A stretch of DNA of 64,000 nucleotides, taken from the NCBI RefSeq assembly GCF_011045215.1, contig NZ_CP049201.1. One strand, given 5' to 3'. Below, in pieces: positions 5,067 to 34,665 of this stretch. The notes beneath the pieces were generated by a model. That model saw only the letters and a program-made list of their open reading frames with translations, ran no database searches and was not told where the DNA came from. Within the stretch, counting starts at the first letter, position 1. Every line of letters starts with the position of its first letter. The translations under genes were made by a program, and so were the position numbers. Source of the stretch: Escherichia coli (GTDB lineage Bacteria; Pseudomonadota; Gammaproteobacteria; Enterobacterales; Enterobacteriaceae).

Positions 5067-5274
5067 GCGAGCAGCATTCCTGATTTTAAACGTGAACGCC
5101 GCTGGAAGAATTATCAGGTATAGAATGGCGTCGGGTGCTTGAGGCTGTCTGGCGTTAAGCATTCGCGAGGTTCCAGATGGACAAAAGCCCCAGGCGATAT
5201 TTCTATCAACCTGAGGCCAGCGTTCGAACCTAAGCAATTCGAATGTTAGTCTCTTCTTTGCAGGGAGGCAAGAC

Positions 5275-5427
5275 ATGCTGACAAAATATGCCCTTGTGGC
5301 AATCATCGTACTGTGTTGTACAGTACTGGGATTCACGCTGATGGTAGGCGACTCGTTGTGTGAGTTGAGTATCAGAGAACGTGGTATGGAGTTTAAGGCT
5401 GTTCTCGCTTACGAATCGAAGAAGTAG
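5275..5427 (+). CDS. hokX: Hok/Gef-family type I toxin (small membrane peptide)
   Basis: 50-aa ORF not in the track (below size cutoff): [50 protein letters not shown]; GGAGG RBS 6-10 nt upstream; hairpin downstream; symbol assigned from position in the cysH-cas3 intergenic region. Confidence 0.75.
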
Positions 5428-5619: not shown

Positions 5620-8319
5620 ATGCGTAAATATCCTTTAAGTTTACTGAAGGATAAAAATATTGTGACTTTCTTTGATTTCTGGGGAAAAACCCGACGCGAC
5701 GAGAAAGAAGGGGGTGACGACTATCACCTTCTTTGCTGGCATTCGCTGGATGTGGCCGCGATGGGCTATTTAATGGTTAAAAGAAATTGCTTCGGGCTGG
5801 CTGATTATTTTCGTCAATTAGGGATTTCTGACAAGGAACAGGCGGCTCAATTTTTCGCCTGGTTGTTGTGCTGGCACGATATTGGAAAATTTGCCCGCTC
5901 ATTTCAGCAACTTTACCTGCACCCACAACTCAAGGTTCCGGAAGGCGCAAGAAAGAATTACGAAAAGATCTCTCATTCAACGCTGGGCTACTGGTTGTGG
6001 CATCATTATTTAAGTGAATGCGAAGAATTGCTTCCTGCCTCTTCACTCTCTACTCGCAAACTTAAACGTGTAATAGCGATGTGGATGCCCATGACTACCG
6101 GGCATCATGGTCGGCCCCCTGACCGTATTGATGAACTGGATAATTTTCTGCCTGAAGACAAAGTTGCCGCGCGAGATTTTCTCCTTGAAATCAAGGCACT
6201 GTGTCCGCTCATAGAGATTCCCACATTCTGGGATAATGACGAGGGAGTTGAACTTTTAAAACAACTTTCCTGGTATATCTCTGCAACAGTCGTACTTGCA
6301 GACTGGACGGGTTCGTCAACGCGATTTTTTCCACGCGTCGCACACCCAATGGATATTAAAGATTACTGGCAGAAAACTTTAGTTCAGGCTCAAAACGCCT
6401 TAACCGTCTTTCCTCCAAAAGCAGAAACCGCACCTTTCACCGGAATTAATACGCTGTTTCCTTTTATTGAGCACCCGACACCATTACAGCAAAAGGTGCT
6501 GGATCTGGATATCAGCCAGCCAGGGCCACAGTTATTTATTCTGGAAGACGTGACTGGCGCAGGTAAAACAGAAGCGGCGCTTATCCTGGCGCACAGGTTG
6601 ATGGCTGCGAGGAAAGCACAGGGTTTGTTTTTTGGCCTGCCAACAATGGCAACGGCCAATGCCATGTACGATCGGCTGGTCAAAACCTGGCTTGCTTTCT
6701 TTTCGCCAGAATCCCGCCCCAGCCTGGTGCTGGCACACAGCGCCCGTACATTAATGGAACGCTTTAATGAATCACTCTGGTCCGGTGATTTAGTCGGGTC
6801 AGAAGAACCGGATGAACAAGCGTTCAGTCAAGGATGTGCAGCCTGGTTTGCCGACAGTAACAAGAAGGCTTTACTGGCTGAAATTGGCGTCGGCACGCTG
6901 GATCAGGCGATGATGGCAGTGATGCCGTTTAAACATAATAATCTGCGGCTTCTGGGGTTGAGTAACAAAATCCTGCTGGCTGATGAGATCCACGCCTGTG
7001 ACGCTTACATGTCGTACATTCTTGAAGGGTTGATTGAGCGACAGGTGCGTGGCGGAAACAGCGTCATTTTGCTTTCTGCTACGTTATCTCAACAGCAGCG
7101 CGACAAACTTGTCGCCGCCTTTGCGCGTGGCACAGAGGGCCAGCAAGAAGCTCCGTTCCTGGAAAAGGATGATTACCCCTGGCTGACGCATGTCACGAAA
7201 TCCGATGTGCATTCGCACCGGGTAGCGACGCGCAAAGACGTTGAGCGTAGCGTGAGCGTGGGTTGGCTTCATAGCGAACAAGAATGTATTGCGCGTATCG
7301 AATCAGCGGTAAGTCAGGGGAAATGCATCGCCTGGATCCGGAATTCTGTCGATGACGCTATTAAGGTTTATCGTCAGTTACTTGCCCGCGGCGTCATTCC
7401 TGCTTCCAGCCTTTCACTTTTTCATAGCCGCTTTGCTTTTAGCGATCGCCAGCGAATTGAAACGGAAACGCTGGCACGCTTTGGTAAAAATTGTAGTTTA
7501 AAAAGATCATCTCAAGTCATTGTTTGTACACAAGTAATTGAGCAAAGTGTGGATATTGACCTGGACGAAATGATCTCCGACCTGGCCCCCATTGATTTGC
7601 TGATCCAGCGAGCGGGGCGATTACAACGGCATATTCGCGATATTAATGGTCAGTTAAAGCGTGATGGAAAAGACGAGCGTTCCCCTCCTGAATTGCTGAT
7701 TCTGGCCCCCGTCTGGGACGACTCTCCGGGTGACGAATGGTTTGGCAGTGCGATGCGTAACAGCGCATATGTCTACCCCGATCATGGGCGAATCTGGCTG
7801 ACGCAGCGAGTATTGCGTGAGCAAGGCGCTATTCAGATGCCACACGCAGCCCGGCTTCTTATTGAATCCGTCTACGGTGAGGACGTGGTAATGCCGGAAG
7901 GATTTGCCCGCAGCGAGCAGGAGCAAGTGGGCAAATATTACTGCGATCGCGCAATGGCTAAAAAGTTTATGCTGAACTTCAGGCCCGGCTATGCCGCCAA
8001 TATCAACGATTACCTCCCGGAAAAGCTGTCGACACGTCTGGCTGAAGAGTCTGTTTCCCTGTGGCTGGCTACCTGTATTGACGGTGTGGTGAAGCCTTAT
8101 GCCAGCGGTGCTCACGCATGGGAAATGAGCGTTGCCAGAGTGCGTCGAAGCTGGTGGAAAAAACATCGGGATGAATTTTCTTTACTGGAAGGGGAAGCGT
8201 TCAGGCAGTGGTGTGTTGAACAACGGCAAGATCCGGAGATGGCAAACGTGATTTTAGTCACTGATGACGAAAGTTGCGGGTATTCGGCCAGGGAGGGATT
8301 GATTGGCAAGGTTGATTGA
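5620..8319 (+). CDS. cas3: Type I-E CRISPR-associated helicase/nuclease Cas3 (HD nuclease + SF2 helicase)
   Basis: 899 aa; N-terminal HD motifs (HLLCWHSLDVAA, WHDIGK), Walker A (GAGKTEAA) and DExH-like LADEIHA; start taken from the only upstream ATG, true start may be an internal GTG. Confidence 0.93.
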   Translation: MRKYPLSLLKDKNIVTFFDFWGKTRRDEKEGGDDYHLLCWHSLDVAAMGYLMVKRNCFGLADYFRQLGISDKEQAAQFFAWLLCWHDIGKFARSFQQLYLHPQLKVPEGARKNYEKISHSTLGYWLWHHYLSECEELLPASSLSTRKLKRVIAMWMPMTTGHHGRPPDRIDELDNFLPEDKVAARDFLLEIKALCPLIEIPTFWDNDEGVELLKQLSWYISATVVLADWTGSSTRFFPRVAHPMDIKDYWQKTLVQAQNALTVFPPKAETAPFTGINTLFPFIEHPTPLQQKVLDLDISQPGPQLFILEDVTGAGKTEAALILAHRLMAARKAQGLFFGLPTMATANAMYDRLVKTWLAFFSPESRPSLVLAHSARTLMERFNESLWSGDLVGSEEPDEQAFSQGCAAWFADSNKKALLAEIGVGTLDQAMMAVMPFKHNNLRLLGLSNKILLADEIHACDAYMSYILEGLIERQVRGGNSVILLSATLSQQQRDKLVAAFARGTEGQQEAPFLEKDDYPWLTHVTKSDVHSHRVATRKDVERSVSVGWLHSEQECIARIESAVSQGKCIAWIRNSVDDAIKVYRQLLARGVIPASSLSLFHSRFAFSDRQRIETETLARFGKNCSLKRSSQVIVCTQVIEQSVDIDLDEMISDLAPIDLLIQRAGRLQRHIRDINGQLKRDGKDERSPPELLILAPVWDDSPGDEWFGSAMRNSAYVYPDHGRIWLTQRVLREQGAIQMPHAARLLIESVYGEDVVMPEGFARSEQEQVGKYYCDRAMAKKFMLNFRPGYAANINDYLPEKLSTRLAEESVSLWLATCIDGVVKPYASGAHAWEMSVARVRRSWWKKHRDEFSLLEGEAFRQWCVEQRQDPEMANVILVTDDESCGYSAREGLIGKVD

Positions 8320-8408
8320 GATGCCTGCGACAGAGACTCTCTGAATAGTTGATACACCGAAAAGGATGGATAACCGACCTGGATGGTCTTTTTTACGAGA
8401 GGATGCGT

Positions 8409-9971
8409 ATGAACTTGTTTTCACTTCTGACAACCCCGTGGTTGCCCGTTCGTTTTAAAGACGGAACGACAGGCAAACTGGCGCCAGTCGATCTGGCTGA
8501 TGAAAATGTTGTCGATATCGCCGCGCCGCGAGCAGATTTACAAGGTGCGGCATGGCAGTTTTTGCTGGGGCTACTACAAACCAGCTTTGCGCCAAAAGAT
8601 CATCGTCGTTGGGATGATATCTGGGAAGACGGACTGGAAGCTGAAAAGCTAAGGGAAGCATTGCTGTCATTAGAACATGCTTTCCAGTTTGGCCCAGATT
8701 CCCCTTCATTTATGCAGGATTTTGAGGCGCTCACGGGAGATAAAGTTCAGGTCGCTTCGCTACTGCCTGATGTTCCCGGCGCTCAAACGACGAAGTTTAA
8801 TAAAGACCATTTTATCAAGCGTGGTGTAACGGAATATCTGTGCCCCCATTGTTTAGCATTGGCCTTGTTCTCTTTACAGTTGAATGCACCAGCGGGTGGC
8901 AAAGGCTATCGCACCGGTTTGCGCGGCGGTGGGCCGATGACCACTCTGATTGAATTACAGGAATATCAGGGCAATCAACAAACACCCTTATGGCGCAAAC
9001 TGTGGCTCAACGTGATGCCGCAGGATGAAGCCGACTTACCGCTACCCCAAAAATTTGACGATCTGGTTTTCCCCTGGCTTGGCCCGACGCGTACCAGCGA
9101 ACTGGCCGGTGCGGTGGTAACCGATGATCAGGTTAATAAACTCCAGGCGTACTGGGGAATGCCACGGCGTATTCGTATTGATTTTAATACCACCACAGTC
9201 GGCAACTGCGATATTTGCGGTGAGCAGAGCGACGCGCTTCTGAGCCTGATGACGACCAAAAATTACGGCGCTAACTATGCCATGTGGCAGCATCCCTTAA
9301 CGCCTTACCGTGTACCACTTAAAGAGGGCGGCGAGTTTTACTCAGTTAAACCACAACCGGGCGGTTTAATCTGGCGCGACTGGTTAGGCCTTATCGAAAC
9401 GGGGAAATCAGAAAACAATACGGAACTTCCCGCGCTGGTGGTGAAACTCTTTAATGCCAGCAGTCTGAAACAGGCAAAAGTGGGCCTGTGGGGATTTGGT
9501 TATGATTTTGACAACATGAAAGCGCGCTGTTGGTACGAGCACCATTTCCCGCTTCTGCTCAATAAAAAAGAAGGCCAGATACCGAAACTGCGGCTGGCTG
9601 CGCAAACGGCTTCACGGATTCTGAGTCTGTTACGGAGTGCATTGAAAGAAGCGTGGTTCTCCGATCCAAAAGGTGCACGGGGTGATTTCAGTTTTGTGGA
9701 TATCGACTTCTGGAACAAAACTCAGCATCGCTTCCTGAGGTTAGTGCGCCAAATTGAAGAAGGTCAGGATGCGGATGAATTACTCGGCAAATGGCAAAAG
9801 GAAATTTGGTTATTCGCACGTCAGGATTTTGACGAGCGTGTATTCACCAATCCTTATGAGCCCGTTGATTTGGAACGCGTCATGACCGCGCGCAAGAAAT
9901 ATTTTACAACATCGGCGGAGAAGCAAAGTGCTAAAGCCGCCAGGGAGAAAAAGCAGGAGGCTGCTGAATGA
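8409..9971 (+). CDS. casA: Cascade large subunit Cse1/Cas8e
   Basis: ORF 8349..9971 trimmed to MNLFSLLTTPWLPVR (520 aa), matching the Cse1 N-terminus pattern MNL...W.PVR; conserved GLRGGGPMTTL loop region; GAGAGG RBS. Confidence 0.9.
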   Translation: MNLFSLLTTPWLPVRFKDGTTGKLAPVDLADENVVDIAAPRADLQGAAWQFLLGLLQTSFAPKDHRRWDDIWEDGLEAEKLREALLSLEHAFQFGPDSPSFMQDFEALTGDKVQVASLLPDVPGAQTTKFNKDHFIKRGVTEYLCPHCLALALFSLQLNAPAGGKGYRTGLRGGGPMTTLIELQEYQGNQQTPLWRKLWLNVMPQDEADLPLPQKFDDLVFPWLGPTRTSELAGAVVTDDQVNKLQAYWGMPRRIRIDFNTTTVGNCDICGEQSDALLSLMTTKNYGANYAMWQHPLTPYRVPLKEGGEFYSVKPQPGGLIWRDWLGLIETGKSENNTELPALVVKLFNASSLKQAKVGLWGFGYDFDNMKARCWYEHHFPLLLNKKEGQIPKLRLAAQTASRILSLLRSALKEAWFSDPKGARGDFSFVDIDFWNKTQHRFLRLVRQIEEGQDADELLGKWQKEIWLFARQDFDERVFTNPYEPVDLERVMTARKKYFTTSAEKQSAKAAREKKQEAAE

Positions 9972-10504
9972 GTATTGTAAAAGAGGAGCACAAAGCCACG
10001 CTGCGCAAATGGCATGAGGAATTGCAGGAGAAACGCGGCGAACGTGCCAGTCTGCGGCGTAGTACGACGGTTAATGATGTTTGTCTGACGGATGGATTTC
10101 GCCTGTTTCTGAAGAACAGACAAATAAAGTGGCAGGATGAACCTGAATGGCGTATTACCGCACTGGCGCTGATAGCCGCACTTAGCGCTAATGTTAAAGC
10201 CATTGATGAACGGCTGCCTTTTGCTGCGCAGCTGGCGGCGGTAATGTCAAAGGGGCGTTTTACTCGCCTGTCGGCAGTAAAAACACCGGATGAATTACTG
10301 CGCCAGTTACGCCGCGCAGTCAGATTATTAAACGGTTCCGTTAATCTTGACTCTCTGGCAGAGGGTGTCTTCCGCTGGTGCCAGGAGAGCGACGATCTGC
10401 TCAATCATCACCGCCGTCATCAGCGGCCAACCGAATTTATCCGTATCCGCTGGGCGCTGGAATATTACCAGGCTGGCGACGCCGATAACGAACAAAATCA
10501 ATAA
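9968..10504 (+). CDS. casB: Cascade small subunit Cse2/Cas11
   Basis: 178 aa basic helical protein; ATG overlaps the cse1 stop (ATGA); position between cse1 and cas7. Confidence 0.85.
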   Translation: MSIVKEEHKATLRKWHEELQEKRGERASLRRSTTVNDVCLTDGFRLFLKNRQIKWQDEPEWRITALALIAALSANVKAIDERLPFAAQLAAVMSKGRFTRLSAVKTPDELLRQLRRAVRLLNGSVNLDSLAEGVFRWCQESDDLLNHHRRHQRPTEFIRIRWALEYYQAGDADNEQNQ

Positions 10505-10515
10505 AGGACTATCTC

Positions 10516-11571
10516 ATGACGACATTTATTCAGCTTCATTTGTTAACCGCTTACCCTGCAGCCAACCTTAACCGTGATGACACCGGAGCGCCGAAAACCG
10601 TGGTCCTGGGTGGAGCAACGCGACTGCGCGTTTCCTCGCAAAGTCTGAAACGTGCGTGGCGCACTTCTGCACTTTTTGAACAGGCACTGGCGGGCCATAT
10701 TGGTATTCGCAGTGGGCGTATTGCGCGTGAGGCGGCAACGATCCTGATTGAGAAAGGCATCGAAGAGAAAAAAGCCATCGAATGGGCGGCAAAAATTGCG
10801 GATTATCTTGGGAAAGCTAAAAACGACAAAAAACCAAAAGATCCGCTCACTAACGCCGAAACTGAACAATTAGTCCATATCAGCCCGGCAGAATTTGACG
10901 CCGTAAAAGCGCTGGCCCATCAACTGGCCGAAGAAAAGCGCGCGCCAAAAGAGGAAGATCTCGCTTTGTTACGTAAAGATCGCATGGCGGTAGATATCGC
11001 TATGTTTGGTCGTATGCTGGCGAATAAACCCGAATTTAATGTTGAAGCCGCCTGCCAGGTCGCGCATGCATTTGGTGTCAGTGAAACGATTGTCGAAGAT
11101 GATTTTTTCACCGCCGTTGATGATTTGCGCCAGGCTTCTGAAGATGCCGGTGCCGGGCATCTTGGTGAAACCGGATTCGGTTCTGCGCTGTTCTACACCT
11201 ATATCTGCATCGATAAAGATCTGCTGGTCGAAAACCTCGGCGGTGACGAAGCGTTAGCTAATCAGACCTTGCGCGCCTTTACGGAAGCCGCACTTAAAGT
11301 CTCCCCAACCGGCAAACAGAACAGCTTTGCCAGCCGTGCCTACGCCTCCTGGGCGCTGGCAGAAAAAGGGACTGAACAACCACGCTCTCTGGCGGCGGCT
11401 TTCTATGAACCCATTAATGGCACCCGGCAGTTAGATGTGGCGGTGCAGCGTATTACAACGCTTCGCGAAAATATGAATACGGTCTATGAACAGAAGACCG
11501 AATGCGCAAGCTTTGACGTGATGAACAAACAGGGAAGCATGAAGGACGTGCTGGACTTTATCTGCGCGTAA
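10516..11571 (+). CDS. casC: Cascade backbone subunit Cas7e
   Basis: 351 aa; Cas7e-like N-terminal region (LTAYPAANLNRDD...SSQSLKRAWR); third gene of the effector operon. Confidence 0.9.
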   Translation: MTTFIQLHLLTAYPAANLNRDDTGAPKTVVLGGATRLRVSSQSLKRAWRTSALFEQALAGHIGIRSGRIAREAATILIEKGIEEKKAIEWAAKIADYLGKAKNDKKPKDPLTNAETEQLVHISPAEFDAVKALAHQLAEEKRAPKEEDLALLRKDRMAVDIAMFGRMLANKPEFNVEAACQVAHAFGVSETIVEDDFFTAVDDLRQASEDAGAGHLGETGFGSALFYTYICIDKDLLVENLGGDEALANQTLRAFTEAALKVSPTGKQNSFASRAYASWALAEKGTEQPRSLAAAFYEPINGTRQLDVAVQRITTLRENMNTVYEQKTECASFDVMNKQGSMKDVLDFICA

Positions 11572-11581
11572 GGGGCGGCTA

Positions 11582-12328
11582 ATGAGCCAATATTTGATTT
11601 TTCAGCTTCATGGGCCAATGGCATCCTGGGGCGTCGATGCCCCCGGCGAAGTGCGTCATACCCATGAACTGCCTTCGCGCTCAGCATTGCTGGGGCTGCT
11701 GGCTGCCGGGGTAGGGATTCGGCGTGATGATACCGAACGATTAAACGCGTTTAACCGCCACTATTCACTGGTGGTTTGCGCCAGCCGTAACCCGCGCTGG
11801 GCACGGGATTATCACACGATCCAGATGCCAAAAGAGGTGCGTAAAGCGCGTTATTTCAGCCGTCGCGAAGAGTTGAGCGACCCTGATCTTCTGAGCGCGA
11901 TTATCTCCCGGCGCGACTACTACACCGACGCCTGGTGGATGGTGGCGGTGGCAACAACAGCCGATGCGCCTTACAGCCTCGAACAGTTGCAGGGCGGTTT
12001 ACGCCATCCAGTTTTTCCTCTTTATCTGGGGCGAAAAAGTCATCCGCTGGCATTACCACTTGCGCCGTTACTGCTCGAAGGCAACGCGTCTGATGTTTTA
12101 CGTAACGCATATCACCAGTATCAGGAGCATTTCCACGACCTGAAAATCGCACTCCCGAAACTTCAGGATGAATGCTGGTGGGAAGGGGAGCACGACGGCC
12201 TGGTCGCGAGCAAAATATTGCGCCGCCGGGATGTTCCTTTAAATCGTCAGCAATGGCTGTTTGGGGAACGCACCGTCAATCAGGGGCCGTGGCTCAGCAA
12301 GGAGGAACCATGTACCTCTCAAGAATAA
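11582..12328 (+). CDS. casD: Cascade subunit Cas5e
   Basis: 248 aa; N-terminus QLHGPMASWG...LPSRSALLGLLAAGVGIRRDD resembles Cas5e. Confidence 0.9.
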   Translation: MSQYLIFQLHGPMASWGVDAPGEVRHTHELPSRSALLGLLAAGVGIRRDDTERLNAFNRHYSLVVCASRNPRWARDYHTIQMPKEVRKARYFSRREELSDPDLLSAIISRRDYYTDAWWMVAVATTADAPYSLEQLQGGLRHPVFPLYLGRKSHPLALPLAPLLLEGNASDVLRNAYHQYQEHFHDLKIALPKLQDECWWEGEHDGLVASKILRRRDVPLNRQQWLFGERTVNQGPWLSKEEPCTSQE

Positions 12329-12956
12329 CCTTACATACCGGCCAGCTTTCGCCTGCGCAGTTGCTGCATCTGGTGGAGCGCGGGGAATATGTGATGCATC
12401 AGTGGCTGTGGGATCTCTTCCCTGGCGGCAAAGAAAGGCAATTTCTTTATCGTCGGGAAGAACTCCAGGGCGCGTTTCGCTTTTTTGTACTGTCGCAGGA
12501 ACGCCCGGCGGAAAGTGAAACGTTCACCATCGAATGCCGGTCATTTGTGCCCGAGCTGCGTACCGGACAACAACTTTGTTTCAACCTGCGGGCGAATCCA
12601 ACAATCTGTAAAGCGGGCAAGCGCCACGATCTGCTGATGGAGGCGAAACGGCAGGTGAGGGGGCAGGCGGAAGGAAGTGATGTCTGGTTGCATCAACAAC
12701 AGGCGGCGCTGGACTGGCTGGCAGCGCAGGGGGAGAGAAGCGGTTTTACACTGCTGGATACCTCGGTTGATGCCTACCGACAACAGCAACTGCGGCGGGA
12801 AAACTCCCGGCAACTGATCCAGTTCAGTAGCGTGGATTATACGGGGATGCTTACGGTCACCGATCCCGGGTTATTTCTGCAACGTCTCAGTCAGGGGTAT
12901 GGCAAAAGCCGCGCGTTCGGCTGTGGTCTGATGCTGATCAAACCCGGAGCAGAGGC

Positions 12957-12960
<4 letters not shown>
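12310..12960 (+). CDS. casE: Cas6e pre-crRNA endoribonuclease
   Basis: ORF 12172..12960 trimmed to MYLSRITLH (216 aa) preceded by an AAGGAGGA RBS; C-terminal glycine-rich GxGxxxxxGxG loop; overlaps the cas5 3' end. Confidence 0.9.
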
Positions 12961-14170
<1,210 letters not shown>

Positions 14171-14266
14171 GTTATGTGTTCTTTAAAAATAAGGAAATGT
14201 TTGAATTTAGTTGGTAGATTGTTGATGTGGAATAAATTTGTTTAAAAACAGATATGTATGCTTAGT
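14171..14266 (+). promoter_or_regulatory. CRISPR leader (AT-rich; array promoter and integration-proximal region)
   Basis: 96-bp AT-rich sequence between the cas2 stop and the first repeat. Confidence 0.8.
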
Positions 14267-14478
14267 GTGTTCCCCGCGCCAGCGGGGATAAACCGGTGCA
14301 TAAAAAATGATACCCCAGCGTTTCGTTGTGTTCCCCGCGCCAGCGGGGATAAACCGATTGAAATAGATCTCCCCGACATTAACGAACAGTGTTCCCCGCG
14401 CCAGCGGGGATAAACCGGGCGCACTGGATGCGATGATGGATATCACTTAGAATTCCCCGCCCCTGCGGTAGAACTCCC
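14267..14478 (+). CRISPR. Type I-E CRISPR array: 4 repeats (29 bp) and 3 spacers (32 bp)
   Basis: Repeat GTGTTCCCCGCGCCAGCGGGGATAAACCG at 14267-14295, 14328-14356 and 14389-14417; degenerate terminal repeat GAATTCCCCGCCCCTGCGGTAGAACTCCC at 14450-14478; spacers at 14296-14327, 14357-14388 and 14418-14449. Confidence 0.97.
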
Positions 14479-23363: not shown

Positions 23364-24551
23364 ATGAGCGCGGGAAGCCCAAAATTCACCGTTCGCCGCA
23401 TTGCGGCTTTGTCACTGGTTTCGCTATGGCTGGCAGGCTGTTCTGACACTTCAAATCCACCGGCACCGGTCAGCTCCGTTAATGGCAATGCGCCTGCAAA
23501 TACCAATTCTGGTATGTTGATTACGCCGCCGCCGAAAATGGGGACGACGTCTACAGCGCAGCAACCGCAAATTCAGCCGGTGCAGCAGCCACAAATTCAG
23601 GCCACTCAACAACCGCAAATTCAGCCGGTGCAGCAGCCACAAATTCAGGCCACTCAACAACCGCAAATCCAGCCAGTGCAGCCAGTAGCTCAGCAGCCGG
23701 TACAGATGGAAAACGGACGCATCGTCTATAACCGTCAGTATGGGAACATTCCGAAAGGCAGTTATAGCGGCAGTACCTATACCGTGAAAAAAGGCGACAC
23801 ACTTTTCTATATCGCCTGGATTACTGGCAACGATTTCCGTGACCTTGCTCAGCGCAACAATATTCAGGCGCCCTACGCGCTGAACGTTGGTCAGACCTTG
23901 CAGGTGGGTAATGCTTCCGGTACGCCAATCACTGGCGGAAATGCCATTACCCAGGCCGATGCAGCAGAGCAAGGAGTTGTGATCAAGCCTGCACAAAATT
24001 CCACCGTTGCTGTTGCGTCGCAACCGACAATTACGTATTCTGAGTCTTCGGGTGAACAGAGTGCTAACAAAATGTTGCCGAACAACAAGCCAACTGCGAC
24101 CACGGTCACAGCGCCTGTAACGGTACCAACAGCAAGCACAACCGAGCCGACTGTCAGCAGTACATCAACCAGTACGCCTATCTCCACCTGGCGCTGGCCG
24201 ACTGAGGGCAAAGTGATCGAAACCTTTGGCGCTTCTGAGGGGGGCAACAAGGGGATTGATATCGCAGGCAGCAAAGGACAGGCAATTATCGCGACCGCAG
24301 ATGGCCGCGTTGTTTATGCCGGTAACGCGCTGCGCGGCTACGGTAATCTGATTATCATCAAACATAATGATGATTACCTGAGTGCCTACGCCCATAACGA
24401 CACAATGCTGGTCCGGGAACAACAAGAAGTGAAGGCGGGGCAAAAAATAGCAACCATGGGTAGCACCGGAACCAGTTCAACACGCTTGCATTTTGAAATT
24501 CGTTACAAGGGGAAATCCGTAAACCCGCTGCGTTATTTGCCGCAGCGATAA
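23364..24551 (+). CDS. nlpD: Murein hydrolase activator lipoprotein NlpD (LysM + M23 domains)
   Basis: 395 aa; lipobox LAGC; Gln/Pro-rich repeats; C-terminal M23 peptidase-like domain; rpoS promoter expected within this gene. Confidence 0.95.
23559..23678 (+). repeat. In-frame tandem repeat tract in nlpD (five 24-bp units encoding [16 protein letters not shown])
   Basis: Direct repeats seen in the DNA, including a near-identical 48-bp duplication (23583-23630 vs 23631-23678). Confidence 0.85.
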
Positions 24552-26873: not shown

Positions 26874-28300
26874 TGGCATTTGATGATTTACGCAGCTTTT
26901 TACAGGCGCTTGATGACCACGGCCAGTTACTGAAAATCAGCGAAGAAATGAACGCTGAACCGGATCTGGCTGCCGCTGCCAACGCCACCGGGCGTATCGG
27001 CGATGGTGCACCGGCGCTGTGGTTTGATAATATTCGCGGCTTTACCGATGCCCGCGTGGCGATGAATACCATCGGTTCCTGGCAGAACCACGCGATTTCC
27101 CTGGGCCTGCCGCCAAACACCCCGGTTAAAAAACAGATTGATGAATTCATCCGCCGCTGGGATAACTTCCCGATTGTCCCGGAACGCCGCGCCAATCCTG
27201 CCTGGGCGCAGAACACCGTCGATGGCGACGAGATTAATTTGTTCGATATCCTGCCACTGTTTCGTTTAAACGATGGCGATGGCGGTTTCTATCTCGACAA
27301 AGCCTGCGTGGTTTCCCGCGATCCGCTCGACCCAGATAACTTCGGCAAGCAGAACGTCGGCATCTACCGCATGGAAGTGAAGGGCAAGCGTAAGCTCGGC
27401 CTGCAACCGGTGCCGATGCACGATATCGCCCTGCATCTGCATAAAGCAGAAGAGCGCGGTGAAGATCTGCCGATTGCGATCACGCTCGGTAACGATCCGA
27501 TCATCACGCTGATGGGGGCCACGCCGCTGAAATACGATCAGTCTGAGTATGAAATGGCAGGCGCGCTGCGTGAAAGCCCGTACCCGATCGCCACCGCCCC
27601 GCTGACCGGTTTTGATGTGCCGTGGGGTTCAGAAGTGATCCTCGAAGGGGTCATCGAAAGCCGTAAGCGCGAAATCGAAGGGCCGTTCGGTGAGTTTACC
27701 GGACACTACTCCGGCGGGCGTAACATGACCGTGGTGCGCATCGATAAAGTCTCTTACCGCACCAGGCCGATTTTCGAATCGCTGTACCTCGGCATGCCGT
27801 GGACCGAAATCGACTACCTGATGGGGCCAGCCACCTGCGTACCGCTATATCAACAACTGAAAGCCGAGTTCCCGGAAGTGCAGGCGGTAAACGCCATGTA
27901 CACCCACGGCCTGCTGGCGATTATCTCCACCAAAAAACGCTACGGCGGCTTTGCCCGCGCGGTGGGCCTGCGCGCGATGACCACGCCGCACGGTCTGGGC
28001 TACGTGAAGATGGTGATTATGGTCGATGAAGACGTTGATCCGTTCAACCTGCCGCAGGTGATGTGGGCGCTCTCCTCGAAAGTGAACCCGGCAGGGGATT
28101 TGGTGCAGTTGCCGAATATGTCCGTGCTGGAACTCGACCCAGGCTCAAGCCCGGCGGGGATCACCGACAAGCTGATTATCGACGCCACCACGCCTGTTGC
28201 CCCGGACAACCGTGGTCACTACAGCCAGCCGGTGGTGGATTTACCGGAAACCAAAGCCTGGGCTGAAAAACTGACCGCTATGCTGGCTGCACGTAAATAA
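26873..28300 (+). CDS. ecdC: UbiD-family reversible aromatic acid decarboxylase (subunit C)
   Basis: 475 aa; UbiD family; start overlaps the ecdB stop. Confidence 0.85.
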   Translation: MAFDDLRSFLQALDDHGQLLKISEEMNAEPDLAAAANATGRIGDGAPALWFDNIRGFTDARVAMNTIGSWQNHAISLGLPPNTPVKKQIDEFIRRWDNFPIVPERRANPAWAQNTVDGDEINLFDILPLFRLNDGDGGFYLDKACVVSRDPLDPDNFGKQNVGIYRMEVKGKRKLGLQPVPMHDIALHLHKAEERGEDLPIAITLGNDPIITLMGATPLKYDQSEYEMAGALRESPYPIATAPLTGFDVPWGSEVILEGVIESRKREIEGPFGEFTGHYSGGRNMTVVRIDKVSYRTRPIFESLYLGMPWTEIDYLMGPATCVPLYQQLKAEFPEVQAVNAMYTHGLLAIISTKKRYGGFARAVGLRAMTTPHGLGYVKMVIMVDEDVDPFNLPQVMWALSSKVNPAGDLVQLPNMSVLELDPGSSPAGITDKLIIDATTPVAPDNRGHYSQPVVDLPETKAWAEKLTAMLAARK

Positions 28301-28310
28301 GGAGAAGAAG

Positions 28311-28547
28311 ATGATTTGTCCACGTTGTGCCGATGAACAGATTGAAGTGATGGCGAAATCGCCGGTGAAAGATGTCTGGACGGTATATCAGTGCCAGCAT
28401 TGCCTTTATACCTGGCGCGATACCGAACCGCTACGCCGCACCAGCCGCGAACATTATCCCGAAGCGTTCCGCATGACGCAGAAAGATATTGATGACGCGC
28501 CAATGGTGCCGAGCATCCCGCCGCTGCTGGCGGAAGGTAAGCGCTAA
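28311..28547 (+). CDS. ecdD: Decarboxylase small subunit D (Cys-rich, zinc-ribbon-like)
   Basis: 78 aa with CPRC...CQHC motif; immediately after the UbiD gene. Confidence 0.75.
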   Translation: MICPRCADEQIEVMAKSPVKDVWTVYQCQHCLYTWRDTEPLRRTSREHYPEAFRMTQKDIDDAPMVPSIPPLLAEGKR

Positions 28548-28555
28548 TAAAAAGT

Positions 28556-28583
28556 GCCGGGTAGTGGCTTTGCTTTACCCGGC
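28556..28583. terminator. Hairpin terminator between convergent ecdD and pphB
   Basis: Perfect 8-bp stem GCCGGGTA/TACCCGGC with a 12-nt loop; U-run on the pphB (minus) side. Confidence 0.55.
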
Positions 28584-28587
28584 CTCA

Positions 28588-29243
28588 TTACTTTATTTTA
28601 TAAAATGACAGCCGCCCGCTGTTCGGCGATCCGGTATCAATATAAATCTGGTTAGCGAACGTCTGAATGTTATCAAACATCATATGTCCAAATATAAAAT
28701 AATCAGCGCCGTTTATTTGTTGTAACTCGCCATTAAGCGATTTCTGCACACGATCAACAGGCCAGAGTAATTCGCTCTCCGCTATTTCTTTACCAAAGAG
28801 ATATTCACTCCCCGGATAATCTGCATGTGCGATGACATATTTTATGTTGTCGTTAGTGATTTAATAATATGTGGAAGGTGATGGAATTTCAGCAACAGAT
28901 CTATTGCCTCTTGTTGCTCTGAATCATTTAAATCGAAAAACCAGTCACCACCGCTGGCAAGCCACATATTTCCATCGCCAGTTTCGAATGCCTCAAGGGC
29001 CATCGCTTCGTGGTTGCCTTTAGCCGATGTAAACCAGGACTGGTTTAACAGGCGCAGCACGTTAAGACTCTCCGGCCCACGATCGATGTTATCGCCTGTG
29101 GAAATAAGTAAGTCGGTTTCAGGGCAAAAAGAGAGTTGATGTAAACGGGATTGTAATAACTGATATTCACCATGAATATCACCAACGACCCATATATGGC
29201 GATAATGATGGGCATTGACTTTTTGATAGCGTGTAGATGGCAT
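28588..29243 (-). pseudogene. pphB: Serine/threonine protein phosphatase 2 (PphB), disrupted by a 1-bp frameshift
   Basis: N-terminal 133 aa (GDIHG, GDNIDRG motifs) ends at stop 28842; the C-terminal part continues in the -1 frame to a stop at 28588; frameshift near 28860. Confidence 0.8.
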
Positions 29244-29348
29244 GGTTTTACCCTGTAAAATAAGCTTTCCTATTATACAGGGTATTTTTATTTGATTCGT
29301 CAGCTGTAGATAATATTCCCGATAGTATTTTTCTACCGGGAATTATAA

Positions 29349-31910
29349 TTACACCAGACTCTTCAAGCGATAAATCCACTCCAGCGCCTGACGCGGGGTG
29401 AGTGAATCCGGATCGAGGTTTTCCAGTGCCTCGACCGCAGGCGAAGTTTCTTCCGGTACTGACAGCAAAGACATTTGCGTACCATCCACTTGCGTAGCGG
29501 CGGCGTTCGGCGAAATGCTTTCCAGCTCACGCAGTTTTTGCCGTGCGCGCTTAATAACCTCTTTTGGCACGCCGGCCAGAGCTGCAACCGCCAGGCCGTA
29601 GCTTTTGCTCGCCGCGCCATCCTGCACGCTATGCATAAAGGCAATGGTGTCGCCGTGCTCCAGTGCATCGAGATGCACGTTGGCGACGCCTTCCATTTTC
29701 TCCGGTAACTGGGTCAGCTCAAAATAGTGGGTAGCAAACAGCGTCAATGCCTTAATCTTATTCGCCAGATTTTCCGCGCACGCCCATGCCAGTGACAGAC
29801 CATCGTAAGTGGACGTTCCACGCCCGATCTCATCCATTAACACCAGACTGTATTCGGTGGCGTTATGTAAAATATTGGCGGTTTCAGTCATCTCCACCAT
29901 AAAGGTTGAGCGCCCGGAAGCCAGGTCATCTGCCGCGCCTACGCGGGTAAAGATACGGTCAATCGGTCCAATCTCGACTTTTTGTGCCGGTACATAGCTG
30001 CCGATGTAGGCCATCAGCGCAATCAGTGCGGTCTGGCGCATATAGGTACTTTTACCACCCATGTTCGGACCGGTGATGATCAACATGCGGCGCTGCGGCG
30101 ACAGATTCAGCGGGTTAGCGATAAATGGCTCATTCAGTACTTGTTCAACTACCGGATGGCGACCTTCGGTAATGCGAATGCCCGGTTTATCAATAAAGGT
30201 CGGGCAGGTGTAATTCAGGGTATAGGCCCGTTCCGCCAGGTTCACCAGCACGTCGAGTTCCGCCAGCGCGCTCGCGCTCTGTTGCAACGCTTCCAGATGC
30301 GGCAACAGCAGGTCGAACAACTCTTCATAAAGCTGTTTTTCCAGTGCCAGTGCTTTGCCTTTTGAGGTGAGAACTTTATCTTCGTACTCTTTTAGCTCTG
30401 GAATGATGTAGCGCTCGGCGTTTTTCAGCGTCTGGCGACGCATGTAGTTGATGGGTGCCAGATGGCTTTGCCCACGGCTGATTTGAATGTAGTAGCCGTG
30501 CACCGCATTAAAGCCAACTTTCAGCGTGTCCAGGCCGGTACGTTCACGCTCGCGGACTTCCAGACGCTCCAGATAATCGGTCGCGCCGTCAGCCAGCGCG
30601 CGCCACTCATCCAGCTCTTCGTTATAGCCCGATGCGATAACACCACCGTCGCGTACCAGCACCGGCGGTGCGTCGATGATTGCTCGCTCCAGCAGATCGC
30701 GCAGCTCGGCAAACTCGCCCATCTTCTCACGTAGCGCCTGTACCGGTGCACTATCAACAGGTTCTAACTGCGCACGCAGCTCCGGCAGTTGCTGGAAAGC
30801 GTGACGCATACGGGCCAGATCGCGTGGGCGAGCGGTACGCAACGCCAGACGCGCCAGAATACGTTCCAGGTCGCCAACCTGACGTAGTACCGGCTGTAGC
30901 CCGGCGGTGAAATCCTGCAATGCGCCAATAGTTTGCTGGCGCTCAAGCAACACGCGGGTATCGCGCACTGGCATATGCAGCCAGCGTTTCAGCATACGGC
31001 TGCCCATCGGCGTGACGGTGCAGTCGAGTACAGAAGCCAGCGTGTTTTCCGCACTGCCCGCCAGGTTCTGGGTAATTTCCAGGTTACGACGCGTCGCGGC
31101 ATCCATAATGATGCTGTCCTGCTCACGTTCCATGGTGATGGAACGAATATGCGGCAGAGTCGTACGTTGGGTATCTTTCGCATACTGCAACAGACAACCG
31201 GCAGCACAAAGTCCGCGCGGCGCGTTCTCGACGCCAAAACCGACCAGATCGCGAGTGCCAAATTGTAGATTCAACTGCTGGCGCGCGGTGTCGATTTCAA
31301 ACTCCCACAGCGGGCGACGGCGCAGGCCGCGACGGCCTTCAATTAACGACATTTCAGCAAAATCTTCTGCATACAGCAGTTCCGCAGGATTAGTGCGTTG
31401 CAGTTCTGCCGCCATCGTTTCCCGGTCAGCCGGTTCGCTCAGGCGAAAACGACCGGAACTGATATCCAGCGTCGCGTAGCCGAAACCTTTGCTGTCCTGC
31501 CAGATAGCCGCCAGCAGGTTGTCCTGACGCTCCTGCAACAGGGCTTCATCGCTGATGGTGCCTGGCGTAACGATACGCACAACTTTGCGCTCAACCGGAC
31601 CTTTGCTGGTCGCCGGATCGCCAATTTGTTCGCAGATGGCAACGGACTCGCCCTGATTCACCAGTTTGGCGAGGTAGTTTTCCACCGCATGGTAGGGAAT
31701 CCCCGCCATCGGGATCGGCTCTCCCGCCGAAGCACCGCGTTTGGTCAGTGAAATATCCAGCAGTTGCGATGCGCGTTTTGCGTCGTCATAAAACAGTTCA
31801 TAAAAATCACCCATCCGGTAAAACAGCAGGATCTCGGGATGCTGGGCTTTCAGCTTGAGATACTGCTGCATCATGGGCGTATGGGCGTCGAAATTTTCTA
31901 TTGCACTCAT
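29349..31910 (-). CDS. mutS: DNA mismatch repair protein MutS
   Basis: 853 aa; Walker [10 protein letters not shown]. Confidence 0.98.
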
Positions 31911-32196: not shown

Positions 32197-32550
32197 ATGT
32201 CCGGCAAGCGTATCTCTCGTGAAAAACTGACGATTAAAAAAATGATCGATCTTTATCAAGCGAAATGCCCGCAGGCGTCAGCGGAGCCGGAGCATTACGA
32301 CGCGCTGTTTGCCTACGCGCAAAAGCGGCTGGATAAATGTGTGTTCGGCGAAGAGAAACCAGCCTGTAAGCAGTGTCCGGTGCACTGTTACCAGCCTGCA
32401 AAGCGTGAAGAGATGAAACAGATTATGCGTTGGGCCGGGCCGAGAATGCTGTGGCGTCATCCGATCTTAACCGTGCGTCATCTCATCGATGACAAGCGTC
32501 CGGTGCCAGAACTGCCGGAAAAATATCGTCCGAAAAAACCTCGTGAATAG
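32197..32550 (+). CDS. ygbA: Uncharacterised Cys-rich protein YgbA
   Basis: 117 aa; conserved position between mutS and fhlA. Confidence 0.85.
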   Translation: MSGKRISREKLTIKKMIDLYQAKCPQASAEPEHYDALFAYAQKRLDKCVFGEEKPACKQCPVHCYQPAKREEMKQIMRWAGPRMLWRHPILTVRHLIDDKRPVPELPEKYRPKKPRE

Positions 32551-32586
32551 TATGCCGGACAGGCAGATCTGTCCGGCAATTTGCAG

Positions 32587-34665
32587 TTAAATCAATGCCG
32601 ATTTATCAATTCCCAGCCGCTTCATCCGTGACAGCAGGGTCGTGCGTTTCAGCCCCAGACGTTGCGCAGCGCCTTTAGGCCCGGCAACCACGCCGTTAGT
32701 TTCTTTCAGCACGCGAACAATCAACTGATATTCATCTTCGCCCTCCTGAGCGACAACCGTTGCGGCAGGCGGCGTTTCAGGCTCCGGTAAAGCAATATCT
32801 GGCAATGACAGCTGCAGCACGTTGCCGCGTGTTAGCAATACCGCGCGCTCAATGACGTTTTCCAGTTCGCGTACGTTACCCGGCCACTCCATATTGCTCA
32901 AGGTGCGCAACGTCTCGGCAGGAATGCTGTCGATATTGCGCCCCAGACGACGGGCAATTTTGAAGGTAAAGGCTTTCGCCAGCAGCGGAATATCTTCCGG
33001 ACGCTCGCGTAGTGGCGGAAGGTGAATCGGGAATACGTTCAGGCGGTAATAGAGATCGCTACGGAACTCACGGTCGGCGACCATTTTTTTCAGATCGCGG
33101 TTAGTCGCGGCGATTAGACGCACGTCCGTCTGAATGATTTTGTTGCTGCCGAGGCGTTCAAACTCCTGTTCCTGCAATACACGCAGCAACTTCGGCTGTA
33201 ACTCCAGTGGCATATCGCCCACTTCGTCGAGGAACAGGGAGCTTTTATCCGCCAGTTCAAAACGACCGATACGCTGGGCGCTGGCACCGGTAAAAGCCCC
33301 ACGCTCATGACCAAACAGATCGCTCTCCAGCAATCCGGCAGGCATCGCCGCGCAATTCATTTTGACCATGCGGCGATTATTACGTCCACTGAGATTATGG
33401 ATAGCACGGGCAATCAGCTCTTTACCCGTGCCAGTTTCACCGAGGATCAGCACGGTACTGTCACTTTGCGCCACCATTTCAACTTGTTTAAGCACGCTGT
33501 ACATGGCTTCGCTGCGGCCAATAATCTCGCCAAATTCACTATCAACATTGTTGAGCTGCTCGGTCAGGGCGAGGTTTTCATCAACCAGCCGTTCTTTCAG
33601 ACGATGGATTTCCTGATAGGCGAGGGCGTTATCGACAGCGATTGCCACACGTTCGGCAATCTGGCGCAGTAAATTCAGATTGGTAGTGGTAAACACTTTC
33701 TCTTCACATTGCGCCAGTTTCAGCACGCCCAGCATGGTGTCGCCAGACATCAGCGGTAACAGGCACAAGGTTTGAATCTGGTTGCCCCAGGTATCGAACA
33801 ACATGCGTTCATAGGGGGCTAAATCATCCCGCTCGTGGAGATTAATCAGCAGCATCTCTTTACTTTTGAACACGCGTTCGGTGAGGGTTCCGGCTTCATC
33901 GACTTCGCTCTGTTCGTGGGCGGGATGCTGTTTATCAAGATAGTGAGTGGAGTAGATGTTGAGTTTGTTTTTACGGTGGCTGCGTAAGACGATACTGATA
34001 TCGTCAATATCGAAATAGTAATGGATTTCTTTGGCGACTTCGCTGACCAGTTCGTCCATATCCAGGCGGGAAAGCACCGCGTTGGTGATGGCGACCAGGA
34101 TGCGGAAGTTATCGCGTTCCCGGCATAACAACTCATAGTCGACATTGTTAACGACGCGACTCTGGATTTGTTCGGTGACGACAGAAACGATCTGCGTAAA
34201 TGTTTGCAGACGATTGAACTCTTTTTCGCTCCAGGGGCGATCGTCATAACGAATAAATTCACAGCCACCAAAAATATGCCCTTCCGCCGCCAGTGGCATC
34301 AGGCAATAGTGACCAAATTTTGGGTATAGCCCACCTGCGGCCAGCTGCGGCCAGGTTTCACAAAATTCTTCGTAACTGCAATGCAGCGTATCAGGGCGCG
34401 ACAAAATGCTGCGTACCGGACCGTGTGCCAGAACAGTTTCGTCTTCATATTTAATGGGGGTGTCTTTTTCACGCGATGCGTAATAAGACGCACGTTGAGT
34501 CTGCGCTTGCCACAACACAATAGCCGCGTTGTCGGCGAGCGCAGAACGCTTTACCAGTTGCGAAAGAGCCTCACACAGCGAGGCCAGATCGGGCTGCTGC
34601 AATAGTGTCCGAGTGATGTCGAACAACCCTTGCTGTCCGAGATCACTCATCGGTGTATATGACAT
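32587..34665 (-). CDS. fhlA: Formate hydrogenlyase transcriptional activator FhlA (sigma54-dependent)
   Basis: ORF trimmed to MSYTPMSDLG (692 aa); GAF domains, AAA+ sigma54-interaction domain ([14 protein letters not shown]) and C-terminal HTH. Confidence 0.96.
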   Translation of the reverse strand: MSYTPMSDLGQQGLFDITRTLLQQPDLASLCEALSQLVKRSALADNAAIVLWQAQTQRASYYASREKDTPIKYEDETVLAHGPVRSILSRPDTLHCSYEEFCETWPQLAAGGLYPKFGHYCLMPLAAEGHIFGGCEFIRYDDRPWSEKEFNRLQTFTQIVSVVTEQIQSRVVNNVDYELLCRERDNFRILVAITNAVLSRLDMDELVSEVAKEIHYYFDIDDISIVLRSHRKNKLNIYSTHYLDKQHPAHEQSEVDEAGTLTERVFKSKEMLLINLHERDDLAPYERMLFDTWGNQIQTLCLLPLMSGDTMLGVLKLAQCEEKVFTTTNLNLLRQIAERVAIAVDNALAYQEIHRLKERLVDENLALTEQLNNVDSEFGEIIGRSEAMYSVLKQVEMVAQSDSTVLILGETGTGKELIARAIHNLSGRNNRRMVKMNCAAMPAGLLESDLFGHERGAFTGASAQRIGRFELADKSSLFLDEVGDMPLELQPKLLRVLQEQEFERLGSNKIIQTDVRLIAATNRDLKKMVADREFRSDLYYRLNVFPIHLPPLRERPEDIPLLAKAFTFKIARRLGRNIDSIPAETLRTLSNMEWPGNVRELENVIERAVLLTRGNVLQLSLPDIALPEPETPPAATVVAQEGEDEYQLIVRVLKETNGVVAGPKGAAQRLGLKRTTLLSRMKRLGIDKSALI

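Follow-up and report, generated by a model that had tools for sequence, protein, structure and literature searches.

A one-base deletion in pphB, the gene downstream of mutS, as a very probable inherited pseudogene of a rare Escherichia coli lineage

The pphB gene in the stretch of E. coli DNA analysed here (64 kb in all, referred to below as the window) has lost a single G from codon 128. We consider it a genuine, inherited, recent and lineage-restricted frameshift pseudogene (c.382delG, with the frame shifting at Glu128), and put the probability of that reading at roughly 0.93. At the level of assemblies, the lesion stands out against intact orthologues and is reproduced in independent sequence data.

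The lesion

On the minus strand, pphB spans 28588-29243, which is 656 nt as compared with 657 nt in intact alleles, so that the initial annotation was right to describe the gene as one base short. Alignment with intact pphB alleles from other strains, which that annotation had proposed as a check, locates the missing base: against the genes of ECONIH4, K-12 and O157:H7 FRIK2455, the only gap column is CDS nt 382, and this gap is the sole one against four intact alleles. The interruption is thus a single-base frameshift, as had been claimed, and the pphB alignment, with its single gap column, holds no compensating second indel. Three features describe the locus:

28842..29243, minus strand: 5' ORF of pphB, 133 aa, starting MPSTRYQK (from the ORF list)
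28862..28863, minus strand: site of the 1-nt deletion, ATTATT^AAATC, the G of codon 128 (GAA, Glu) being absent between these two bases
28588..28860, minus strand: 3' pphB remnant in the -1 frame, codons 129-218, ITNDNIKYVIAHADYP...FGH...IDTG...FYKIK, with its stop at 28590-28588

Where the intact alleles read CAT ATT ATT GAA ATC ACT, the window reads CAT ATT ATT AAA TCA CT. The base that is missing is a single G with TT on one side and AAA on the other, outside any homopolymer; the junction had accordingly been placed well, near 28860 (to within 3 nt), but its description as part of an A/T-rich run does not hold for an isolated G. The 133-codon ORF, which opens with MPSTRYQKVNAHHYRHIWVVGDIHG in the ORF list, encodes 127 native PphB residues followed by six out-of-frame codons (KSLTTT) and a TAA at 28844-28842. 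The earlier identification of the stop at 28842 therefore stands, and its attribution of all 133 codons to PphB shrinks to 127, codons 128-133 being out of frame. A TAA at 28863-28861 closes the -1 frame, which from 28860 onwards is open as far as its stop (28590-28588) and specifies PphB residues 129-218. A tblastn search with the intact PphB of strain PapM-32-1 divides in the same way, 29243-28860 matching residues 1-128 and 28860-28591, in the other frame, matching residues 129-218, and so agrees with the previous reading of the C-terminus as lying in the -1 frame down to a stop at 28588. The start codon and upstream region of pphB are unaltered. At the site itself, the opposite strand offers just short mechanical ORFs, and no Rfam family is found there.

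Identity of the gene

The locus is pphB (prpB, Ser/Thr phosphatase 2) by descent, although what it now encodes falls short of the family's cutoff. When the G is restored, the resulting 218-aa protein scores 466.6 bits over positions 1-218 of 218 of the equivalog model NF007425 (PRK09968), for which the cutoff is 332; the 133-aa product that is actually encoded scores 270.9 bits and covers only profile positions 1-128. The model for the paralogue PphA gives the repaired protein 234.7 bits, which is below that model's own cutoff. (Pfam Metallophos is still found on the 133-aa product.) Location agrees with identity: mutS ends with its stop at 29349, pphB starts at 29243, and the 105-nt spacer between them is the same in ECONIH4, K-12, O157 and PapM-32-1. 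Both the profile match of the repaired protein and this canonical position next to mutS bear out the original naming of the gene. K-12 pphB/prpB occupies the same locus directly downstream of mutS and is 96-98% identical in nucleotide sequence to the window gene; the window gene differs in lacking CDS nt 382, in having a product of 133 rather than 218 aa, and in being followed by ecdD (the O157-type layout) where K-12 has ygbI.

Intact pphB encodes a lambda-phosphatase-like, Mn2+-dependent protein phosphatase 2 of the PPP family; among the bacterial enzymes of that family, PphB/PrpB falls in the lambda-phosphatase group (PMC535813). According to a passage of PMC6610125 that cites Missiakas and Raina (1997), PrpA and PrpB modulate the envelope protein-misfolding response via CpxRA and htrA. 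Many literature matches to 'prpB' were set aside because they concern an unrelated methylisocitrate lyase gene.

What the frameshift takes away

The 5' ORF keeps three motifs of the phosphatase: GDIHG (residues 21-25), GDNIDRG (50-56) and GNHE (76-79). The lambda Ser/Thr phosphatase (PDB 1g5b), to which PphB aligns over residues 6-216 with E = 2.4e-56, resembles it in having GDXHG, GDXXDRG, GNHE, metal-binding histidines and IDTG. In that alignment, PphB D22, H24, D51 and N77-H78 fall opposite the N-terminal metal-binding and catalytic residues of the lambda enzyme, and G186-H187 fall opposite lambda G185-H186. PphB H140 faces lambda H139, which we take to be a metal ligand. The lambda phosphatase is intact, whereas every element past residue 127 is out of frame in the window pphB; only the -1 frame still specifies H140, G186-H187 and IDTG, which lie beyond the frameshift and the stop at 28842. 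The GDXHG, GDXXDRG and GNHE motifs contain most of the metal ligands, lambda H186, with an invariant Gly before it, binds metal, and the Asp of (I/L/V)D(S/T)G contacts a metal-bound water (PMC535813). With two metal-binding histidines (H140 and H187) and IDTG lost, the dinuclear metal centre would be incomplete and the enzyme should be inactive; to judge from these residues, the 133-aa product should be unable to assemble either the dinuclear centre or the full fold.

The course of events that we propose begins with the inherited deletion of one G, which would shift the frame at Glu128. From its normal start, the gene would then yield a 133-residue product with GDXHG, GDXXDRG and GNHE; the C-terminal half with His140, Gly186-His187 and IDTG would be missing and the dinuclear metal centre would not be completed. 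The result would be a dead enzyme and unaffected neighbours. Separate expression of the C-terminal half was considered and rejected: the first usable start, a GTG at 28749 (53 aa), comes only after H140, and no ribosome-binding site is obvious in front of it.

The two halves of the gene are otherwise undamaged and their frames overlap by just 16 nt (28860-28845), so that one -1 shift within the overlap would produce 218 aa. Programmed -1 ribosomal frameshifting or transcriptional slippage might in that way restore full-length PphB (as E128K), but the overlap is poorly made for it and we find such recoding scarcely credible. The TAA at 28863-28861 in the -1 frame confines any shift to AAA TCA CTA ACG ACA ACA, the P-site codons fail to re-pair after a -1 slip (AAA to TAA, TCA to ATC), and there is no X XXY YYZ heptamer or long homopolymer in the overlap 28860-28845 (AAATCACTAACGACAACA), the longest run being A3, which is much too short for slippage by RNA polymerase. 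Programmed frameshifting or slippage of the dnaX or IS type was rejected for want of a slippery motif. The intact alleles of thousands of genomes, moreover, have no frameshift here, and hence there is no conserved recoding signal.

A mutation or an error of sequence

A pphB interrupted by one base could also be the work of a sequencer. The initial annotation left the choice between a pseudogene and a sequencing indel open; the evidence favours the pseudogene over the indel, the same allele being present in three assemblies and 61 other orthologues being intact. The public protein collection includes this exact 133-aa product, which is encoded by three contigs, each from its own sample: GCA_910665095.1 (referred to here as L004), Logan ERR3329057 (L005) and Logan SRR11014969 (L006). 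In all three the pphB nucleotide sequence is identical to that of the window, deletion included. Across 15.6 kb, L006 matches the window at 100% identity, and the two may come from one isolate; the argument from independence therefore falls mainly on the other two contigs, L004 and L005, which clearly represent different strains, because their integrase islands at the 5' end of mutS differ and the flank of L005 carries about 1% SNPs.

The quality of the assembly was gauged by a gene-integrity check, in which the 62 annotated PapM-32-1 genes with an orthologue in the window were translated and each was compared with the window. All but one of these orthologues (61/62) are full length, with no stop or frameshift, pphB being the sole broken gene (mltB is merely clipped by the window's end); the assembly is therefore not indel-prone. 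On the hypothesis of a sequencing or assembly artefact, the genome would have an intact 657-nt pphB from which one base was dropped in base-calling or consensus. Single-base indels in A/T-rich stretches are indeed the commonest type of assembly error, and this deletion is absent from complete E. coli genomes. Against that are its recurrence in three assemblies, each built from its own read set and two representing clearly different strains, the identity of the lost base as a lone G away from any homopolymer, and the freedom of the other 61 orthologues in the 64-kb window from indels and stops. An artefact is thus very improbable, and we treat the deletion as a mutation in what follows.

Distribution of pphB and of its losses

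Among 5,426 complete E. coli genomes, pphB is present in 5,231, a frequency which suggests that purifying selection usually maintains it. When the site was searched with a spanning 80-nt query, 4,779 genomes gave a match, and the extra base is there in all of the matches listed. A 40-nt query that could seed only across the deletion junction found no match in the 5,426 complete genomes. Complete RefSeq E. coli genomes therefore lack the allele, which is on record in three draft assemblies only. This particular loss of pphB is restricted to a rare lineage of E. coli.

Loss of pphB is nevertheless not peculiar to that lineage. When 39 full-length pphB matches were sampled at even spacing, one, from K-15KW01, had an anomalous length. 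Its pphB (BA058_RS06670) also has a 1-nt deletion and a gene of 656 nt, and is labelled 'frameshifted' by PGAP, but the lesion, at CDS nt 523, arose independently of the window deletion in an allele of different background. The protein cluster holds other short N-terminal PphB products, for example one of 112 aa from Shigella flexneri SFJ17B. With the K-15KW01 frameshift and these short products in view, sporadic loss of pphB recurs in E. coli and is an ordinary event.

Age and surroundings of the deletion

No substitution in the 3' remnant is private to the window allele, which indicates that the deletion is probably recent on an evolutionary scale. In the 5' part there are three private non-synonymous changes (I9V, P69S and V74A) and three private synonymous ones; two of the three non-synonymous changes are at positions common to K-12 PphB and the lambda phosphatase, a sample too small to speak for relaxed selection. 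We infer that the loss has been without selective cost. Its consequences for adjacent genes depend on the following element:

28546..28592, minus strand: G+C-rich hairpin with a U-run after it, in the interval where pphB and ecdD converge (dG -19.9 kcal/mol, z = -3.1)

This hairpin is probably a shared intrinsic terminator of pphB and ecdD. Since pphB is monocistronic and convergent with ecdD across it, no polar effect on the neighbours is expected.

The nearest complete genome is that of PapM-32-1, to which the window is 97.8-99.0% identical, but the gene layout is of the O157 type, rpoS-marR-ecdBCD-pphB-mutS, with ygbI-ygbN absent. The ygbI-ltnD-otnK-otnC-ygbM-ygbN cluster that PapM-32-1 has between pphB and ecdD is accordingly missing at 28300-28590. 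Also missing, at 32540-32590, is the TOBE-domain gene that PapM-32-1 has between ygbA and fhlA, and there too the layout of the window is O157:H7-like.

Comparison with L005 brings out a different discontinuity. From 28308 to 31884, a segment that takes in pphB and mutS, the window and L005 have no differences; leftwards of a sharp boundary at 28307-28308, through ecdC, ecdB, marR, rpoS and nlpD, they differ by about 1% SNPs. A recombination boundary at 28307-28308 fits the known pattern of mutS exchange, the mosaicism of the mutS region and the recombination and horizontal transfer of mutS being well documented (PMC4209514). An identical mutS-pphB(frameshift) segment in strains with a flank difference of about 1% is compatible with recombinational spread, and one might suppose that the segment spread because the loss of pphB was advantageous or, differently, that the 133-aa fragment has been kept functional as a metal-binding or dominant-negative protein, for which the unchanged start codon and upstream region of pphB are relevant. 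We regard both suppositions as highly unlikely. Known recombination and horizontal transfer of mutS (PMC4209514) account for the shared segment, and selection on pphB need not be invoked. Carriers of the frameshift allele on record number just three, and half a metallophosphatase fold, short of two metal ligands, would hardly be expected to fold or to act. The reading to be retained is that of a pseudogene.

Other features of the window and of related strains

In L004 and L005, integrase-bearing islands are inserted in the 5' end of mutS (7245-7360, corresponding to window position 31884), where the window has, unlike them, an ordinary ygbA-mutS junction. The islands replace the first 9 mutS codons (MSAIENFDA becomes MNED/EIDKDFSS), so that the N-terminus of MutS and its upstream region are supplied by the island. 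That of L004 has three consecutive Phage_integrase genes; that of L005 has integrase, AAA_15 and reverse-transcriptase (RVT_1) genes and is defence-like in appearance.

The nlpD gene contains a 48-bp tandem repeat (23562-23682, 2.5 copies), in which the window has one extra unit (23621-23668, 16 aa, in frame) relative to L004 and L005; its NlpD is likewise 16 residues longer than that of PapM-32-1. Between cysH and cas3 (5133-5424) is a chromosomal hok/sok toxin-antitoxin locus, made up as follows:

5133-5290: sok RNA (Rfam RF01794, 111.7 bits)
5275-5424: Hok ORF, 50 aa

A complete type I-E CRISPR-Cas operon occupies 5620-14478, with a very small CRISPR array (14266-14478) of three good 30-nt repeats and one degenerate one. 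CasB is 86% and Cas3 94% identical to the PapM-32-1 proteins, as against 99-100% for flanking genes, and these identities suggest that the CRISPR-Cas region may be locally mosaic.

Significance

The correct annotation of this locus is a pphB pseudogene (c.382delG), not two hypothetical ORFs and not an error to be 'corrected' into an intact gene. As the ordinary loss of a well-known gene, it is biologically unsurprising and carries little weight beyond annotation. The deletion could be used as a lineage marker, and it is a further instance of plasticity in the mutS-rpoS region. What it also shows is that at least one natural lineage of E. coli can do without PphB, a stress-signalling phosphatase that is poorly understood.
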